The position numbers were made by a program, and so were the translations under genes. From Candidatus Beckwithbacteria bacterium (lineage in GTDB: Bacteria > Patescibacteriota > Microgenomatia > UBA1400 > UBA1449), in contig JAAZOH010000004.1 of the NCBI GenBank assembly GCA_012797845.1, positions 1,658 to 65,657 on the forward strand: DNA of 64,000 bases. Direction: 5' to 3'. The notes beneath the pieces were generated by a model that saw only the letters and a program-made list of their open reading frames with translations, had not been told where the DNA came from and did not search any database. Positions 2,733 to 63,758 of this stretch are shown in pieces; within the stretch, counting starts at the first letter, position 1; the number at the start of each line of letters is the position of its first letter.

Positions 2733-3020
2733 ATGGCAACGCCAAAATTGCAACCTACAGCCGGGTATATCCTACTCGAACCTCAGGAAGCTACTAAAAA
2801 AACCGCTTCCGGTATTTATTTACCAGATTCTCACGACGAAAAACCTCAGCAGGCTAAAGTTTTAGCAGTTGGTCCTGAGACCAAAAAAGCTAAAGCTCCT
2901 GTTAAAGTTGGTGATATGGTAATTTACAAAAAATGGGGCGGAGATGAAATCAAGCTTAGTTTGACTGACAAAGAGTTAGTTTTTGTCAAATTTGAAGACG
3001 TTTTAGCAATTGTTAAATAA
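2733..3020 (+). CDS. groES: Co-chaperonin GroES.
   Basis: MATPKLQPTAGYILLEP...VGDMVIYKKWGG is a canonical GroES sequence. The RBS AAAGGAGG sits 7 nt upstream of the ATG at 2733, so the ORF-track start at 2715 is probably too early. Confidence 0.9.
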   Translation: MATPKLQPTAGYILLEPQEATKKTASGIYLPDSHDEKPQQAKVLAVGPETKKAKAPVKVGDMVIYKKWGGDEIKLSLTDKELVFVKFEDVLAIVK

Positions 3021-3067
3021 ATTATAAAATTTGAGATCTAAATTCTAAGGTATGTAGAATTTAGTAA

Positions 3068-4747
<1,680 letters not shown>

Positions 4748-12788: not shown

Positions 12789-14204
12789 TTATATTCTAGG
12801 AAAAAGTGGCTTGGTTGGTGGTGTTACCTTATTACTAAAAACTTCTAGGATTGTTTCTGAAGTCTGAGGTAAAAAGGGTTGTAAATTATAAGCAATAGCT
12901 TTGACCTCTTGAGATAAATGAGTCAAAACTTCTTGTGCTTTGTTACCAGATAAGCTCCATGGTTGGGTTTTATTGATTGCCTGGTCAGTTTCCTGAATTT
13001 TTTTCCAGACAGCCTCAATACTTAGGTGAAATTCAAACTTATCTAGATGCTTAGCCATAGTTTTATCAAAACCAGCTTCTTTTTCCTCAGAAACAAATAG
13101 GTTATTTTTAGCAGCCATGGTAGCTACCCGCTGGACCAGATTGCCTAGACCATTAGCCAAATCTGCATTATAAATTTCCTCAAAACGCTCATAGGAAAAG
13201 TCGCCGTCTTTAAAGGGGTGAATTTCTTTAAGTAAATAGTAACGGGTAGCATCAGCACCATACTTGGCAACTACTTCATATGGGTCAATGACATTACCTA
13301 AGCTTTTGCTCATTTTTTGTCCGCCAGAGGTAATAAAACCATGAATCAAGATTTGAGTGGAATTTGGTAAACCAGCCGATAAAAGCATAGCTTGCCACAT
13401 GGCACTTTGCTGACGCAAGTTATCTTTACCAGCCAGTTGCATTCCAGGCCAAAACTTTTCAAATGTTTCCTGGTCTTGAGGCCAGCCTAGAGTGGAAATG
13501 TAATTGATCAAAGCATCAAACCAAACGTACATGACATGATTGGGATCATTTGGTACCGCAATACCCCAAGGCATTTTAGTTTTAAGCCGGGAAATACTAA
13601 AATCCTGCAAGCCAGCTTCGACAAATTTAACTATCTCTTTTTGACGCCAGGAAGGAAGAATAAAATGTGGGTTATCCTGATACAGTTTCAGTAGTGATTG
13701 CTGATATTTAGAAAAGCGAAAAAAGTAATTTTCTTCTTCTCTAGTTTCCAGCTCTAAAGTTGGATGTAAAGGGCACTTACCGTTTTCCAGCTCGCTATCT
13801 TGTTTTTCCAGCTCGCAACCGACACAATATTTGATTTTGTACTTAGCTTTATAAATATCACCATTTTCTTGACATTTTAACCAAAACTCTTGAGCGGCTT
13901 TAATATGATGGGGATTAGTAGTTCTTATAAAAGCATCGTAGCTTAGGTTCAAGGCCTTTTTTAGGTTATCAAACTTTTGAGCGTATTCATCACAGTAAGC
14001 TTGAGGGTCTTTATCTTGCTCTAAGCTTTTTTGATAGATTTTTTGACCATGTTCATCAGTGCCAGTATTGAAAAAAACTTCATTACCTAAAAGTCGTTGG
14101 TAGCGGGCAATAGTATCAGCCTGGACAATTTCCAAAGCAAAGCCAATGTGTGGGTCAGCGTTAACGTAAGGGAGCGTAGTAGTAAGATAAAATGGTTTTT
14201 TCAC
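12789..14204 (-). CDS. metG: Methionyl-tRNA synthetase (short form).
   Basis: Class-I HIGH (PHIGF) and KMSKS (KMSKSLGN) motifs, CxxC zinc knuckles and an anticodon-binding region. Confidence 0.9.
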   Translation of the reverse strand: MKKPFYLTTTLPYVNADPHIGFALEIVQADTIARYQRLLGNEVFFNTGTDEHGQKIYQKSLEQDKDPQAYCDEYAQKFDNLKKALNLSYDAFIRTTNPHHIKAAQEFWLKCQENGDIYKAKYKIKYCVGCELEKQDSELENGKCPLHPTLELETREEENYFFRFSKYQQSLLKLYQDNPHFILPSWRQKEIVKFVEAGLQDFSISRLKTKMPWGIAVPNDPNHVMYVWFDALINYISTLGWPQDQETFEKFWPGMQLAGKDNLRQQSAMWQAMLLSAGLPNSTQILIHGFITSGGQKMSKSLGNVIDPYEVVAKYGADATRYYLLKEIHPFKDGDFSYERFEEIYNADLANGLGNLVQRVATMAAKNNLFVSEEKEAGFDKTMAKHLDKFEFHLSIEAVWKKIQETDQAINKTQPWSLSGNKAQEVLTHLSQEVKAIAYNLQPFLPQTSETILEVFSNKVTPPTKPLFPRI

Positions 14205-14271: not shown

Positions 14272-14338
14272 GTGTCATTTCAATTGGAGCAGAAAAATCT
14301 TACAAAAAGATCTTTCAACTTTTGTTTAAGATGACAAC
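14272..14338. repeat. Palindromic repeat family, copy H0 (degenerate).
   Basis: GTGTCATTTCAATTGGAGCAGAAAAATCT-tacaaaa-AGATCTTTCAACTTTTGTTTAAGATGACAAC. It shares the outer GTGTCAT/ATGACA(A)C and inner AGATCTTTC words with copies at 46.2-46.8 kb, 57.9 kb and 63.7 kb. It ends 5 nt before the ATG at 14344. Confidence 0.6.
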
Positions 14339-14343
14339 TACTA

Positions 14344-15126
14344 ATGGCTACTTTTCTTCACTTGATTACTGATTATGGTACTGGTGATCCAGCCTTTGCC
14401 GAAGTTGAGCAACGTTTACTTAGTCTTAATCCTGATTTTTATCTTATTAAAACCTCGGTACCATCTTTTAACACCATTGCTACTGGTTTTTGGATCAATC
14501 AATTTGCTTTAGGTGATCATCCACAAAATATGATGATCTATTCCAATACGGCTCCAAGGAAAGATGATACTAAAAAACGTAAAGAAAATGCTGGGGAACA
14601 TTTTATTTATGCTCAGCTTAAGAATGGTATGGAAATATGTGCGGTCAATGCTGGCTACTGTTTTTCCTTTATTAAACCCCATATTAAAAGTTTACATGCA
14701 CTTAATGTAGCCAATCATGGTTCACAGTTTCGGTCTCGGGATTTTTACCCAGAAGCTGTAGCGGCAATTGCTAAAGGCGATACCAAACTGATTGGTCACA
14801 AAATGGATATTGCAAACATTCCGAACGAACCTAAAAACCGGATTGCTTGGGTGGATGGCTATGGCAACATCAAAACAACTATCCGTAAATCTCAGGTTAC
14901 TTTTAAAGAAGGGGCTAAAGTCCAGATTATTGTCGATGGCGTAGTTCGGACAGCTTTGGTAACTGGGGGTATTTTCTCAGTAGCTGAGGGAGAACTGGCT
15001 TTTTCTCAAGGCAGTTCTGGTCACGACGATCCTTTTATGGAGATTTTCCTGCGAGGTGGCAATACCTACCGCCATTTCAATAAACCCAGTGTACACGCTG
15101 AAATTGAATTGCGGGAAATTCAATAA
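14344..15126 (+). CDS. SAM hydroxide adenosyltransferase-like protein (DUF62, fluorinase/chlorinase-related family).
   Basis: N-terminal LITDYGTGDP (family hallmark TDFG). C-terminal WVDGYGNIKT and LAFSQGSSG...EIFLRGGN match the conserved DUF62 C-terminal barrel motifs. Confidence 0.6.
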   Translation: MATFLHLITDYGTGDPAFAEVEQRLLSLNPDFYLIKTSVPSFNTIATGFWINQFALGDHPQNMMIYSNTAPRKDDTKKRKENAGEHFIYAQLKNGMEICAVNAGYCFSFIKPHIKSLHALNVANHGSQFRSRDFYPEAVAAIAKGDTKLIGHKMDIANIPNEPKNRIAWVDGYGNIKTTIRKSQVTFKEGAKVQIIVDGVVRTALVTGGIFSVAEGELAFSQGSSGHDDPFMEIFLRGGNTYRHFNKPSVHAEIELREIQ

Positions 15127-19171: not shown

Positions 19172-19212
19172 CATGTCATTCTGAACTTGTTTCGGAATCC
19201 CAGTATTTAGAA

Positions 19213-23665: not shown

Positions 23666-24544
23666 TCAACTAGCGCTGAAACCAAGCTTAAACTTGGTAA
23701 ATCCCTTCCAACCAGAATTGAGTTTGGGAAAGCGCTCATCCCATAAACCTTCAAAGTCAAAGATTTTCATCTTGCGTTTTTTGCTTTCCAAAATTGCTTG
23801 CCAAATACATAAAGTTGGAGCAAAAAGTTGATGGCTTTTTAGAGTTGAAGCGTTGTGCCAATAGAAAGCCATATTAGGAGTAGTTAGGATAAGACAAGTG
23901 GCCAACAGGTTATTAGTAATAGATTCTTCGCTACGCTCAGAATGACACTTTTGAGAAATAAAGACAAAAAAACATTTCCCTCCAAAAGATCTGACTAAGT
24001 TTTCTAGCTCTGAAAATTTAGGTTTAAACAGCCAGTTGTGCGGTTTATTTTTTGACCACAGTTGATAGAAATTTTGCAATTGTTCTTTGCTTGTTTTATC
24101 TCCAGAAATAATTGAAACTACTAATTTTTGTTGAGCCTTGCGTAAGTTATAACGGGTTTTAGCTTTTAAGTTTGCCAATAAATAGTTTTCAGATTTAGTT
24201 ACGTCAAGCCATAGGGTTTTAGTAGGTAAAACTGGCCAAGAATTATTTTTATCTTTAGTAAAATAAATCTGATCTTTTTTTTGTTTAGCAATAATAAAAG
24301 GTTCTTGCTTAAAAATTACAACTCTATGTTTTCTTTTGATTTGCTTAACCATTTTGGGGTCGAGTGATTTTTTAGCGCGCAAAATTTTAACCAAACCAAA
24401 AGGAGTTAAGGGAATAGTGCGGTAAGAATAAAAAACTGTGTCTTTATCTTGTCTTAAAACACCTTGTTGCCAGCCAAGGGTTTGCATAAATTGGTTGAAC
24501 TGCGATGTTTGACGGACATCAATAAGATTAGTATTTGAAAACAT
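23666..24544 (-). CDS. FemAB-family peptidoglycan interpeptide-bridge aminoacyltransferase (paralog 2).
   Basis: The KAKTRYNLRKAQQK motif and overall FemABX/GNAT-tandem organisation. Confidence 0.7.
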   Translation of the reverse strand: MFSNTNLIDVRQTSQFNQFMQTLGWQQGVLRQDKDTVFYSYRTIPLTPFGLVKILRAKKSLDPKMVKQIKRKHRVVIFKQEPFIIAKQKKDQIYFTKDKNNSWPVLPTKTLWLDVTKSENYLLANLKAKTRYNLRKAQQKLVVSIISGDKTSKEQLQNFYQLWSKNKPHNWLFKPKFSELENLVRSFGGKCFFVFISQKCHSERSEESITNNLLATCLILTTPNMAFYWHNASTLKSHQLFAPTLCIWQAILESKKRKMKIFDFEGLWDERFPKLNSGWKGFTKFKLGFSAS

Positions 24545-25585
24545 TTACAATGGGAGGGCGGCTTTTAACTTAAGCAATTTCCAACGGGCTTTATCAGCTA
24601 TTTGATAAACCTGGTATTTAGGCTGATCAATCACATAATCAAATGTGCCCATAAATTCCATCAAAGTTGGGCCATAGCCTTGCTTGAATTTATGAAAACC
24701 CATCCAGGGATCTTTTGGATCAGGGTCAGGACCAAGGCTACCCCACATGTCAAAAATCTGGCAGCCAGCTTGCTTACCATAGCGTATAGCTTCCCACATC
24801 ATTAGATTGCTAGCCATCACTTCGCGGTCAGCAGAGCTAGAAGCGCCATATGGATAATACAAAATTTGATTAAAGGTAAATAAAATCCAAGTAACTAAAG
24901 TATTGCCTTGGTGAGTTGCTTTAAGAAGGTGAGCAATCCCAGCTGGTTTTAAGACTGACCACATTTGGCGGTGATACTTTTCGTTGTGAGCATAAAAGCG
25001 TTGCCGTTTGGTGGTTTCCTCAAAAGTTAATTTGAGATAATCTTCAAATGCCGATTCACTATTATCTTCGCTAATTTCCACCCCTTTGCGTTGAGCCAGT
25101 CCCACATTGTAGCGGGTTTTTTGCTTCATATTTGCCAGAAGTTCTTGCTCTGAAAGCCTAAGATTAGCCATGAAACTGTATTTAGTAAACATCGGCTTAC
25201 CAAAGACACAGCTATGCTCTTTAAGATATGTTTTGGCTTCAGCCAACTTTTCCTTATTATCAGTTTCAGCTATTTGATATACATTGGGTTCAAGTTTAAT
25301 AAAGATTGCATTTTTAGCTTTGCCCAGATCTTTCAAAGCAGCCAGAACTTCTTCACTAGGTAAAACTGATTTTGGCAAATAACCAATAGTAAAAGGAAAT
25401 TTAGGTACAGGATGAAAGGTGATAGTAAAACCATTGACAATTTTGCTGCCATTAAATTCACCAAGACGAACTACATCAATACCAGTTTTGGCACGAAACT
25501 CGCCCCATTCCCAAGACTGAAGCGGATGGGCCACCGCCTGGTTATAGCTATCTTTTTCTTCTGGTCGTACTTCTCGAACTAACAT
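24545..25585 (-). CDS. FemAB-family peptidoglycan interpeptide-bridge aminoacyltransferase (paralog 1).
   Basis: SWEWGEF, KQKTRYNVGLAQRKGV and a C-terminal GNAT-like half. It is directly adjacent to the second paralog. Confidence 0.75.
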   Translation of the reverse strand: MLVREVRPEEKDSYNQAVAHPLQSWEWGEFRAKTGIDVVRLGEFNGSKIVNGFTITFHPVPKFPFTIGYLPKSVLPSEEVLAALKDLGKAKNAIFIKLEPNVYQIAETDNKEKLAEAKTYLKEHSCVFGKPMFTKYSFMANLRLSEQELLANMKQKTRYNVGLAQRKGVEISEDNSESAFEDYLKLTFEETTKRQRFYAHNEKYHRQMWSVLKPAGIAHLLKATHQGNTLVTWILFTFNQILYYPYGASSSADREVMASNLMMWEAIRYGKQAGCQIFDMWGSLGPDPDPKDPWMGFHKFKQGYGPTLMEFMGTFDYVIDQPKYQVYQIADKARWKLLKLKAALPL

Positions 25586-45731: not shown

Positions 45732-46217
45732 TTGTTAAAAATGAATGTACATATTCGTTTTGCCAAACCTTCTGATTGGCAGGTCATCCAAAAACTTAAT
45801 GATGAGGTGATGAAGGATAATGCCCAGTACGATCCCCATCTAAAAACAAATTATGCTTATAGCAAAATAGGTGAAAAATACTACAAAGATATTGTTAGTA
45901 ACCAAGAATTTTGTTGTTTTATTGCCGAACTTGATAGTATTCCAGTGGGTTATTTAGTAGCTGAAGATATGTCACTTGATTATAAATGTGATTATAAAAC
46001 CAGACCAATTGCGGAAATTTATGATATGGGTGTAACTAGTAAATACCGATCACAAGGTGTTGGATCCCAACTGATTGCAGATTTCAAGAATTGGTGCAAA
46101 GAAAAAGGGATTGAACTTTGGCGAGTTAATGTGTATGTCCAAAACGAGAGAGCTAGAAAATTTTATGAAAAGCATGGTTTAAAACCACTTGATATTTCTT
46201 TTGAGGGTGAAGTGTAG
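45732..46217 (+). CDS. GNAT-family N-acetyltransferase.
   Basis: YDMGVTSKYRSQGVGSQLIADF (motif A) and the KFYEKHGL C-terminal motif B. Confidence 0.6.
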   Translation: MLKMNVHIRFAKPSDWQVIQKLNDEVMKDNAQYDPHLKTNYAYSKIGEKYYKDIVSNQEFCCFIAELDSIPVGYLVAEDMSLDYKCDYKTRPIAEIYDMGVTSKYRSQGVGSQLIADFKNWCKEKGIELWRVNVYVQNERARKFYEKHGLKPLDISFEGEV

Positions 46218-46238
46218 TTACTCTTAATATCTTTGATT

Positions 46239-46311
46239 GTGTCATGTTGAGCAAAGCGAAACATCTTAAAGTTGCAAAAAGATCCTTTGAGCTTTGCTCT
46301 CAGGATGACAC
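46239..46311. repeat. Palindromic repeat family, copy H1 (hairpin).
   Basis: GTGTCATGTTGAGCAAAGCGAAACATCT-taaagttgcaaaa-AGATCCTTTGAGCTTTGCTCTCAGGATGACAC. The arms are mutually complementary. Confidence 0.7.
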
Positions 46312-46337
46312 CATAGAGTATAGATAGAATTTGAAAT

Positions 46338-46700
46338 GTGTCATTCTGAGTGAAGCGAAGAATCTTTGCTATGTTAACAAAAGAATATTTTGTTTATATT
46401 TTAACCAATTATACCAATACGACTTTATATATAGGTGTCACAGATAATCTTAAAAGAAGAATATATGAACATAAAAATGATTTAGTAGAAGGATTTTCAA
46501 AAAATATAAACTACATAAATTAGTCTATTTTGAAACGTTTAATGATATTACAATAGCAATACAAAGAGAAAGATATTTAAAAGGCAAAACGAGAAATTTT
46601 AAAGATACTTTGATTCAAAAAACAAATCCGAAATTTGAAGATTTATTTAATAAACTAGATTAAAGATCCTTCTCTTGCTAAGATGGGACCAGGATGACAC
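46338..46700 (+). mobile_element. Palindromic repeat copy H2 carrying a GIY-YIG nuclease gene in its loop (candidate autonomous element).
   Basis: Left arm GTGTCATTCTGAGTGAAGCGAAGAATCTTTGCT ends at the ORF ATG. The right arm AGATCCTTCTCTTGCTAAGATGGGACCAGGATGACAC starts right after the ORF stop. The inner and outer inverted-repeat words are the same as in the short hairpin copies. Confidence 0.6.
46371..46663 (+). pseudogene. YhbQ/UPF0213-type GIY-YIG nuclease gene, disrupted by a -1 frameshift in an A6 tract.
   Basis: Frame 1 reads MLTKEYFVYILTNYTNTTLYIGVTDNLKRRIYEHKNDLVEGFSKNINYIN*. This carries GIY-YIG motifs (YFVYIL, LYIGVT) and the conserved Arg and Glu-His. The offset frame continues KLVYFETFNDITIAIQRERYLKGKTRNFKDTLIQ... 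to 46663. One extra A in the run at 46499-46504 would restore GFSKKYKLHKLVYFE, which matches the family consensus. Confidence 0.65.
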
Positions 46701-46729
46701 TAACTATAAGAATGGTTAAAGTGCAGACT

Positions 46730-46802
46730 GTGTCATTCTGAGCAAAGCGAAGAATCTAATGATTTAAAAAAGATCTTTCGGGCGTTGCCCTCAAGATGAC
46801 AC
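46730..46802. repeat. Palindromic repeat family, copy H3 (hairpin).
   Basis: GTGTCATTCTGAGCAAAGCGAAGAATCT-aatgatttaaaaa-AGATCTTTCGGGCGTTGCCCTCAAGATGACAC. It ends 10 nt before the gltX ATG, and the RBS AAGGAAA abuts its right end. Confidence 0.7.
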
Positions 46803-46811
46803 AAGGAAATT

Positions 46812-48275
46812 ATGGTTCGAACTCGTGTAGCGCCATCACCAACCGGCTATCCCCATGTGGGTTCTCTCTATCAAGCATGGCTAGATTATGCTTTTGCCAA
46901 AAAACATGATGGTAAATTTTTAATTAGGATTGAGGATACTGACAGAACCAGGTTTGTTGCAGATGCTGAAGAAAAAATTTATGAAGGTTTGGATTGGGCA
47001 GGACTTACAGAAGATGAAAGCCCTCGTAAGCCTGGTGATGTTGGCCCTTATCGGCAATCGCAGCGTTTAGATATTTACAAAAAACATGCCCAAGAGCTGG
47101 TAGCTAAAGGTCATGCCTACTACTGTTTTTGTACTCCAGAGCGCTTAAATCAAGTCAGAACGGAAATGCAAAAAGTTGGCAAAGTGCCTATGTATGACAG
47201 ACATTGCCGTAATTTAAGCCCAGAAGAAGTACAGCAAAGAATCCAAGCAGGCGAAAAATACGTCATCCGTCTCAAAGTTCCAGACAATCAAACTATCAAA
47301 GTGCAAGATCTGATTCGTGGTGAAATAACATTTCATAGCAATGATGTGGATGATCAGGTTTTACTAAAATCTGATGGCTTTGCTACCTATCATTTAGCTT
47401 CAATGGTTGATGATCACCTGATGGGAATTACCCATGTAGTGCGGGGTGAAGAGTGGCTGCCCAGCAGTCCTAAACATATTTTGATCTACGATTTCTTTGG
47501 CTGGGAAAAACCAGTTTTTTTCCACACGCCAACCTTGCGCAATCCAGATAAAAGCAAACTGTCCAAACGTAAAGGTCATACCAATATTCTTTGGTATAAA
47601 GAGCAAGGGTTTTTACCTGAAGCTTTGATCAATTATCTGAGTCTCATGGGTTGGTCACATCCCGAAGAAAAAGATATTTTTAGCAAAGAAGAATTTATCA
47701 AGCTTTTTGACCTCAAAGATTTTTCACCAGCCGGACCAATTTTTGACGAAGTTAAACTGCGGTGGATGAATGGTAAATACATTCGGGAAGTGATATCTGA
47801 AGATGAGCTCTTTAATAAATTAAAGCAGTATTTAACATTACCAATTAGCGATGAAATACTTAAAAAAACTATTCCACTTATCAAAGAACGTCTAGAAGTT
47901 TTATCTGACATAAATGAACTGTTGAAATTTTTACTACCTGAGCAGGAGATAGATGTAGAACTTGTCAAAAAACAGAGCAATCAATCCAAGAATGACCAGT
48001 CTCTGACTGGAAAATCACCAGAAGAAATTAAGCAACTACTAACCGATTTAAAAACTGTTTTAGAAAACTTAGATACATGGGAGACAGGTGAGATCGAAAA
48101 AGTAATTCGAAACTTGAAAGGTAAGTATAAAGATTGGGGAGGCCGAGATTATTTCATGACTATTCGGGTAGCAACTACTGCTTTTCCAGTTACCCCGCCT
48201 CTTTTTGAGTCTATTGAAGTATTAGGAAAAGACTTGGTTTTGCAGCGGATTGAATCGGTGCTTCAGCGTTTATAA
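46812..48275 (+). CDS. gltX: Glutamyl-tRNA synthetase.
   Basis: RVAPSPTGYPHVGSL (HIGH), KLSKRKG (KMSKS variant), and the class-I GluRS catalytic core. Confidence 0.9.
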   Translation: MVRTRVAPSPTGYPHVGSLYQAWLDYAFAKKHDGKFLIRIEDTDRTRFVADAEEKIYEGLDWAGLTEDESPRKPGDVGPYRQSQRLDIYKKHAQELVAKGHAYYCFCTPERLNQVRTEMQKVGKVPMYDRHCRNLSPEEVQQRIQAGEKYVIRLKVPDNQTIKVQDLIRGEITFHSNDVDDQVLLKSDGFATYHLASMVDDHLMGITHVVRGEEWLPSSPKHILIYDFFGWEKPVFFHTPTLRNPDKSKLSKRKGHTNILWYKEQGFLPEALINYLSLMGWSHPEEKDIFSKEEFIKLFDLKDFSPAGPIFDEVKLRWMNGKYIREVISEDELFNKLKQYLTLPISDEILKKTIPLIKERLEVLSDINELLKFLLPEQEIDVELVKKQSNQSKNDQSLTGKSPEEIKQLLTDLKTVLENLDTWETGEIEKVIRNLKGKYKDWGGRDYFMTIRVATTAFPVTPPLFESIEVLGKDLVLQRIESVLQRL

Positions 48276-57866: not shown

Positions 57867-57945
57867 GTGTCATTCTGATCCCGCCTTGGCGGGGGAAGAA
57901 TCTTTCTTATACTAATTAGATCTTTCGTTTCACTCAGGATGACAC
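57867..57945. repeat. Palindromic repeat family, copy H4.
   Basis: GTGTCATTCTGA-TCCCGCCTTGGCGGGGG-AAGAATCTTTC-ttatactaatt-AGATCTTTCGTTTCACTCAGGATGACAC. It has an extra GC mini-hairpin in the left arm. It sits in the divergent intergenic region, 31 nt before the ATG at 57976. Confidence 0.7.
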
Positions 57946-63676: not shown

Positions 63677-63758
63677 GTGTCATCCTGAGGAGGGTAGCGA
63701 CGAAGGATCTTAAAATAAGAAAGATTCTTCCCCCGCCAAGGCGGGGTCAGAATGACAC
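63677..63758. repeat. Palindromic repeat family, copy H5 (inverted relative to H4).
   Basis: GTGTCATCCTGAGGAGGGTAGCGACGAAGGATCT-taaaataagaa-AGATTCTTCCCCCGCCAAGGCGGGGTCAGAATGACAC. Its right arm is the reverse complement of the H4 left arm, including the GC mini-hairpin. It ends 16 nt before the ATG at 63774. Confidence 0.7.

Follow-up and report, generated by a model that had tools for sequence, protein, structure and literature searches.

A frameshifted Ssn-like GIY-YIG nuclease gene flanked by SRM-like DNA hairpins in a Candidatus Beckwithbacteria genome

The Ssn proteins are a family of single-domain GIY-YIG nucleases of about 94 amino acids (CDD cd10448) that bind a repeated hairpin as single-stranded DNA (ssDNA) only and in one orientation, and that cut a few nucleotides upstream of it (Chenal et al., Nat Commun 2025, PMC11893778). 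In Neisseria this hairpin is known as the NTS (CGTCATTCCCGCGMAVGCGGGAATCYRG), and the general term is SRM; an SRM lies nearby in 71% of ssn homologues and on both sides in 42%, and the typical hairpin-flanked arrangement, written "NTS-ssnA-NTS", has been compared with insertion sequence (IS) elements and with REP repeats and their RAYT enzymes (PMC11893778). Binding to the NTS depends above all on the 3' C and cutting on the 5' GTC, and the SsnA of Neisseria, NMV_0044 in N. meningitidis, which binds no RNA, reduces the integration of NTS-bearing transforming DNA (PMC11893778). Here we report on a 64-kb stretch of the genome of a Candidatus Beckwithbacteria bacterium (GCA_012797845.1, contig JAAZOH010000004.1), referred to as the window, in which the gap between a GNAT acetyltransferase gene and gltX holds a small nuclease gene and members of a palindromic repeat family. 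We describe the identity and the frameshift of this gene, the anatomy and covariation of the repeat units, and the association of gene and unit across phyla, and we consider the locus very probably a member of the Ssn/SRM system, that is, a GIY-YIG gene, frameshifted or mis-assembled, flanked by its cognate DNA hairpins.

The nuclease gene and its relatives

The gap between the GNAT gene (45732..46217) and gltX (46812..48275) is 594 nt long and contains two imperfect 73-bp palindromes (46239-46311 and 46730-46802), which a repeat finder aligned at 78% identity, and between them the nuclease open reading frame (ORF) region 46371-46664, bracketed by arms of the same repeat family (Table 1). The left arm, GTGTCATTCTGAGTGAAGCGAAGAATCT at 46338-46365, matches that of the third copy at 93% identity. 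The right arm (~46663-46700) is an inverted, partly degenerate copy, with conservation confined to its outer 11-13 nt and the AAGATCCTTC part and a degenerate inner part. Both the palindromes and the kinship of the arms had been recognised in the initial annotation of this stretch, and alignment with the repeat finder agrees with it. The limits of the ORF had been described there as flush with the arms; the stop codon TAA (46662-46664) touches the right arm, and the ATG (46371) lies 5 nt past the end of the left arm. The repeat family is not limited to the three members first counted in the gap, since further pairs and a solo unit occur elsewhere in the window.

The gene reads in frame 1 for 46371-~46502, ending in a stop at 46521-46523, and the remainder (~46499-46664) reads in frame 3; tblastn of the nuclease protein on the window accordingly returned two pieces in two frames. 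The break lies at a run of six A residues near 46500 where seven are needed, a loss of 1 nt, and the repaired product is 97 amino acids long. This frameshift may represent a real pseudogene or a homopolymer error of the assembly. When other assemblies of the GNAT-gltX site were sought for a polymorphism in the frameshift or the insertion, only ENA contig ERZ928041 was found, which is also the only public contig found with this gltX and carries the same frameshift; the GNAT protein had no database record.

The repaired protein matched the GIY-YIG family PF01541 with E=3.2e-14 over residues 6-76 and contained no second domain, and this profile comparison bears out the initial identification of the ORF as a GIY-YIG nuclease, although the ORF is not intact. 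Its homologues numbered 1189 at E<=1e-5, with identities of 55-68% among the 120 listed, and an alignment revealed that Y9, Y20, G22, H34, and E67 are invariant and R30 and N86 nearly so, all of which are kept in the repaired protein. An NCBIfam scan yielded no subfamily model for the repaired protein and only weak, sub-threshold matches to group I intron endonuclease and DEDD models; its TIGR01453 score was 23.7 bits, far under the cutoff of 56. In a PDB sequence search the nuclease protein had no relative at E<0.1, so that no solved structure could be drawn on.

Seven homologues at 55-66% identity had their genomic surroundings scanned for units of the repeat, and nearly all had units within 0-300 nt of the gene. 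One of the relatives (P0098), encoded in a Daviesbacteria genome (L008), is 62% identical to the repaired protein, and its gene has TGTCATTCCCGCGAAAGCGGGAATCTAT, which fits the published SRM regular expression and is almost the Neisseria NTS, 5 nt upstream and a (-) unit 4 nt downstream. A Sphingobium homologue found by tblastn against plasmids (36% identity at full length; 38.7% over 77% of the query, E=1e-10) has SRMs matching the same expression on both sides in the (+)/(-) layout of the window gene, and a homologue from Planktothrix (48-49%) has on its flanks units of the subtype seen at the window gene, recognisable by the GA/GA internal loop described below. The published pattern, HGTCWYN(0-2)YYVSBRHN(0-5)WNVSBRGN(0-2)RNCYNB, matched the flanks of the homologues at L008 and L145. 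At eight of the 12 informative loci the nearest upstream unit was (+) and the nearest downstream unit (-). Relatives in unrelated genomes are again flanked by units, mostly in the same layout, which supports the interpretation in the initial annotation on this point. Through these transitive links to SRM-flanked relatives, the protein is probably a member of the Ssn family.

Two other kinds of GIY-YIG protein invite comparison. E. coli YhbQ (UPF0213, cd10456), a DNA damage response nuclease according to its record annotation, resembles the window protein in fold class and size (100 amino acids), and the GIY-YIG core residues align, but the two are only 26% identical (pairwise E=4e-8; 24% in the alignment, where YhbQ is a clear outlier), as against 62% for the NTS-flanked Daviesbacteria protein and 36-48% for other unit-flanked proteins. 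The 5-kb yhbQ region contained no match to GTCAY-N18-RATC, a fixed-length pattern that would miss units of other lengths. Because of the low identity, the outlying position, and the lack of a unit match, the label of "YhbQ/UPF0213-type" originally given to the ORF is loose and imprecise. The GIY-YIG homing endonucleases I-TevI and I-BmoI likewise have the catalytic domain and a gene placement like that of a selfish element, but they possess a separate DNA-binding domain, cut double-stranded DNA, and reside in introns, whereas the window protein is a bare catalytic domain.

The neighbourhoods of the nuclease genes showed further features. Over 42.5-48.3 kb of the window the gene order is dnaK-GNAT-dnaJ-GNAT-[ssn]-gltX, with ssn breaking into a conserved housekeeping cluster; the Daviesbacteria order is hrcA-grpE-dnaK-[ssn]-methyltransferase-dnaJ, and at L014 and L015 it is rimP-[ssn]-nusA. 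Two loci from different assemblies (L017 and L018, gene at 3001-3297 in both) encode an identical 98-amino-acid nuclease (P0068) with rlmN downstream in both and phosphoribulokinase versus tatC upstream, which suggests a rearrangement breakpoint at a cluster of hairpin units. On the Planktothrix agardhii plasmid NZ_LR882964.1 (L146, 18847-19131) the nuclease gene has an MmeI-type restriction-modification gene on one side and DISARM drmA on the other, a defence-island context, and is accompanied by GA/GA units and by truncated tandem copies of the 5' half of the unit. At L007 (2610-2970), four tandem repeats of ~95 nt between a tRNA gene and the nuclease gene each contain an SRM-like long-loop unit, GTCATTCAGAGCG...GCGTGGAATCC.

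Anatomy and distribution of the hairpin unit

Within the 64-kb window a unit detector gave 15 hits against 1.8 expected, of which 11 were clear units, and the 13-mer GTGTCATTCTGAG occurred 11 times with at most two mismatches, where 1.0 would be expected and 100 shuffles gave no more than 4. With a single exception the clear units are intergenic, and in all 11 a GTC precedes the 5-bp stem and a C follows the matching stem. The arm parses as GTC, ATTCT, GA, GC-GAA-GC, GA, AGAAT, C: the outer stem of 5 bp leads through a symmetric internal loop, GA/GA, to a short inner stem closed by 3 nt, with GTC on the 5' side and C on the 3' side. In its general form the unit consists of 5'-GTC, an A-N4 stem, GA, a short capped hairpin (often GCGNAGC), GA, an N4'-T stem, and C-3'. 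The outer stems of the window units are compensatory (ATTCT/AGAAT, ATCCT/AGGAT, ATGTT/AACAT, and ATCTT/AAGAT), the inner hairpins are variable yet self-complementary (GGGCAACGCCC and CCCGCCTTGGCGGG, for example), and folding as single-strand DNA gave the same structure for most units.

A scan of 185,579 species genomes with the pattern GTCATYCTGAG-N4-16-GAAGRATC gave at least 120 loci (L023-L142); the counts that follow are for the loci listed. The free Y/R stem pair was complementary in 174 of 177 distinct units, and the inner segment closed as a hairpin in 72% of units versus 11% of shuffles, the commonest forms being GCGCAGC, GCGAAGC, and GCGTAGC. With a pattern blind to complementarity, 158 of 203 distinct matches, comprising 13 stem types, had all four Watson-Crick pairs, against a mean of 48 and a maximum of 64 when partners were shuffled, counts that are inflated by kinship among copies and come mostly from loci gathered with the first pattern. 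The commonest adjacency was the convergent (+/-) pair with a gap of at most 60 nt, seen in 64 of 105 adjacent pairs, and the two halves of such pairs had a stem type in common in 21 of the 64 (chance about 27%) and an inner segment in 10.

Because the halves are uncorrelated and the compensatory changes fall within halves, what is conserved is the separate hairpin of each half and not the long palindrome. A more accurate description of each 73-bp "hairpin" is a pair of ~25-33-nt units in convergent orientation on opposite strands, and a single 73-bp palindrome as the conserved entity was rejected. The initial annotation had interpreted the gene as an ORF replacing the loop of one palindrome, a reading that is not supported, as the conserved thing is the unit and the two units of a pair resemble each other no more than units taken at random do. 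A 21-nt similarity (76%) of the pair 1 loop to the 3' end of the ORF was considered as a sign of deletion derivatives and rejected, being too short and AT-rich.

The subtype GTCATYCTGAG...GAAGRATC was present in metagenome-assembled genomes and isolates of many phyla, and its true spread is larger than the loci listed. Examples came from Nitrospirota, Chloroflexota, Acidobacteriota, Bacteroidota, Saccharibacteria, Gracilibacteria, Omnitrophota, Lachnospiraceae, Helicobacter, and Planctomycetes, and the subtype also occurred in Cyanobacteria, Firmicutes, and Patescibacteria. Among the 120 listed loci, which were picked for the unit alone, three encode a homologue of the nuclease, with the gene 45-80 nt from a unit in each; most units are therefore solo, and the gene, where present, is associated with a unit.

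The likeness to the Ssn system with its NTS and SRM hairpins extends to a single-domain GIY-YIG protein of ~95 amino acids, an oriented repeated hairpin on either side of the gene, a GTC directly 5' of the stem and a C directly 3' of it, many solo intergenic copies, and a 62% homologue flanked by a near-canonical NTS. The window units share the NTS frame GTC-ATTC...GAAT-C, and their 5' GTC and 3' C are invariant. In contrast to the NTS, in which the stem is continuous (ATTCCCGC/GCGGGAAT), the stem of the window units is broken by the GA/GA loop and ends in a short variable cap; the window gene, moreover, is frameshifted, and its host is Patescibacteria-like, a group not mentioned in PMC11893778. 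Judged from its sequence, the repeat is an SRM-like unit of a subtype not captured by the published definition.

Table 1. Coordinates of the nuclease gene and of the repeat units in the window
Feature	Coordinates	Strand or units	Remarks
ssn-like GIY-YIG nuclease gene, frameshifted	46371..46664	+	translations, PF01541, tblastn in two frames
SRM-like unit upstream of gene, GTCATTCTGAGTGAAGCGAAGAATC	46340..46364	+	ATG 6 nt later; DNA fold .....(((((...........)))))..
SRM-like unit downstream of stop, GTCATCCTGGTCCCATCTTAGCAAGAGAAGGATC	46665..46698	-	outer stem and GTC/C flanks kept, inner part degenerate
Empty convergent pair 1 (palindrome 46239-46311)	46241..46309	(+) 46241-46265 ATGTT/AACAT; (-) 46281-46309 ATCCT/AGGAT	spacer 15 nt
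Empty convergent pair 2 (palindrome 46730-46802)	46732..46800	(+) 46732-46756 ATTCT/AGAAT; (-) 46772-46800 ATCTT/AAGAT	
Empty convergent pair 3 (palindrome 57867-57945)	57869..57943	(+) 57869-57902; (-) 57919-57943	between divergent starts 57777(-) and 57976(+)
Empty convergent pair 4 (palindrome 63677-63758)	63679..63756	(+) 63679-63709; (-) 63723-63756	downstream of response-regulator gene
Decayed convergent pair 5 (14272-14337), GTGTCATTTCAATTGGAGCAGAAAAATCT...AGATCTTTCAACTTTTGTTTAAGATGACA	14274..14335		between divergent genes 12789..14204(-) and 14344..15126(+)
Solo unit GTCATTCTGAGCGTAGCGAAGAATC	23922..23946	-	in frame inside FemAB-like ORF 23666..24544 (-), read as CHSERSEESI

Empty pair 2 ends 11 nt ahead of the gltX ATG, and the (+) unit of pair 3 has a long inner hairpin, CCCGCC/GGCGGG. 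The window pairs are all heterotypic, each joining two different stem types, and at L011, L020, and L022 the (+) units are ATACT/AGTAT and the (-) units ATTCT/AGAAT; avoidance of perfect long palindromes and the presence of two specificities are both possibilities here. The paralogue adjacent to the FemAB-like ORF (24545..25585) has an 8-residue gap exactly at the position of the solo unit, which suggests that the unit was inserted into the coding sequence without breaking the gene. Copies within genes account for only ~2% of NTS (PMC11893778). A possible further solo unit with a different interior, GTCATTCTGAACTTGTTTCGGAATCC, lies directly behind a stop codon at 19174-19203 (+). A literature search with the repeat as a sequence string gave incidental primer and bla-TEM matches only.

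Weighing the explanations

Several of our results weigh against assigning the locus to the Ssn/SRM system. Neither the published SRM regular expression nor the strict NTS matched anywhere in the window, and the expression matched none of the 176 distinct units of the subtype; the two units of SRM anatomy beside the window gene, at 6 nt on its upstream and 0 nt on its downstream side, do not match it either. The pattern does not accommodate the interrupted stem of the subtype, which has TGAGC in place of CCGCG, and SRM membership therefore rests on shared anatomy and transitive links and not on the published definition. Several short units were no more stable than shuffles (z -0.5 to +1, nearest-neighbour DNA parameters), whereas whole palindromes folded better than shuffles (z -1.9 to -4.0), so that thermodynamics alone would favour the long hairpin. 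Finally, cleavage of GA/GA units by any member of the family is a prediction by analogy, and the window copy of the gene is frameshifted, so nothing at the locus need be active. The folding energies leave the choice between unit and palindrome undecided, and the comparative data decide it for the unit.

It is possible, although in our view doubtful, that unit, nuclease gene, and unit together form an autonomous selfish element, of which the empty pairs would be non-autonomous derivatives (MITE/REP-like) or homing sites, with nicks followed by repair or strand transfer copying or moving the module. This is in essence the model of the initial annotation. The gene sits within a convergent pair, and empty units, too, are most often arranged in this way; homologues at 55-66% identity occupy unrelated neighbourhoods, where they interrupt rimP-[ssn]-nusA and dnaK...dnaJ; the identical protein P0068 has two upstream contexts; one unit lies in frame inside an ORF; and the analogy with IS elements was raised in the Ssn paper itself (PMC11893778). 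On the other hand, transposition or homing has been demonstrated for no Ssn, ssDNA nicking being the only demonstrated activity (PMC11893778), no target-site duplications were seen by eye at pair boundaries, and the mutual dissimilarity of the halves is unlike recent copies with terminal inverted repeats. No polymorphism between empty and filled sites was found, because only one assembly carries the site. Such an element, which has already been put forward in the literature, would be compatible with the Ssn/SRM explanation and not exclusive of it.

A second possibility, that the palindromes are ordinary terminators, or stabilising or regulatory hairpins acting at the RNA level, between which the nuclease gene merely landed, seems highly improbable. 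Three of the five pairs do lie behind gene 3' ends, those of the GNAT gene, the nuclease pseudogene, and the response-regulator gene, and whole palindromes fold stably, but no terminator-like site was found at 46000-47000, no copy is followed by a T-tract, two pairs lie between divergent gene starts, and one unit is inside an ORF. An Rfam scan of the window at gathering thresholds returned two tRNAs only, with no match at the repeats. Conservation concerns a unit that has an orientation and whose single-stranded flanks, GTC and C, do not vary; across phyla these units are tightly linked to the nuclease gene, and their mini-hairpins capped by GNA are typical of stable DNA hairpins. The Neisseria SsnA, as noted, does not bind RNA (PMC11893778). 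We rejected the terminator reading on the lack of terminator-like sites at 46000-47000 and on the pairs between divergent genes. That the repeats are REPs mobilised by an HUH transposase encoded elsewhere (a RAYT, or the TnpA of IS200/IS605), with the GIY-YIG gene as a bystander, is scarcely credible to us. In overall appearance, as short imperfect palindromes in intergenic locations and frequent inverted pairs, the units do resemble REP/BIME sequences, and with the REP/RAYT and IS200/IS605 systems (HUH Y1 enzymes) they have in common hairpins recognised as ssDNA, an enzyme gene flanked by repeats, and many non-autonomous copies. However, the window enzyme is GIY-YIG and not HUH, transposition is without evidence here, and the gene adjacent to units in every unrelated locus examined was GIY-YIG, although no dedicated RAYT search was run. 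The units bear the GTC...C signature of NTS and SRM hairpins, unlike the GTAG-type head of REPs. As a comparison between systems, the parallel with REP/RAYT drawn in the initial annotation was apt, and the Ssn paper makes the same one (PMC11893778).

Under the Ssn/SRM explanation, the following steps may be envisaged, largely by analogy with Neisseria. The unit would fold when DNA becomes single-stranded during replication, repair, or uptake of transforming DNA, as suggested by SsnA, and an intact Ssn would, as in the Neisseria work, recognise a single orientation, bind the hairpin together with the 3' C, and nick a few nucleotides 5' of the GTC on the strand with the unit in sense orientation. 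For a convergent pair the predicted nicks would fall on the two strands just outside the pair, and for a gene-carrying pair they would bracket the unit-gene-unit module. By the same analogy the intact protein would be expected to cut this subtype of unit, its cellular role might be the control of incoming or replicative ssDNA, and the module of gene and units could conceivably spread as a selfish element.

Implications for the Ssn family

The initial annotation had suggested that the association was undescribed and might constitute a new class, but Chenal et al. 2025 (PMC11893778) already describe the association of gene and hairpin for Ssn; the system itself was thus published in 2025, and the locus is mostly a re-discovery. 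Overall, the GIY-YIG nuclease, the kinship of the arms, and the likeness to REP/RAYT stood from the original interpretation, and its novelty, the YhbQ label, and the ORF-in-loop reading did not. We also entertain a bolder combination, unlikely as we judge it to be, in which the GA/GA unit is a distinct and very widespread SRM class missed by current searches and a mobile unit-ssn-unit module has the convergent pairs as its empty form or its target, moving through GIY-YIG nicks made on each strand just beyond the pair. If true, this would represent a class of ssDNA-based mobile elements with a GIY-YIG in place of an HUH enzyme, even inserting in frame into genes.

The locus extends the partnership of Ssn and hairpin to Patescibacteria-like genomes and adds a hairpin subtype, with an interrupted stem, a GA/GA loop, and a GNA-capped mini-hairpin, that is invisible to the published pattern and common in many phyla. 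Because that pattern misses a common subtype, the published shares of Ssn genes and genomes with cognate repeats are probably too low. The convergent-pair layout, together with the independent evolution of the halves, places a constraint on models of how these repeats originate, and the loci described here offer natural pairs of enzyme and site for the development of ssDNA-cutting tools.

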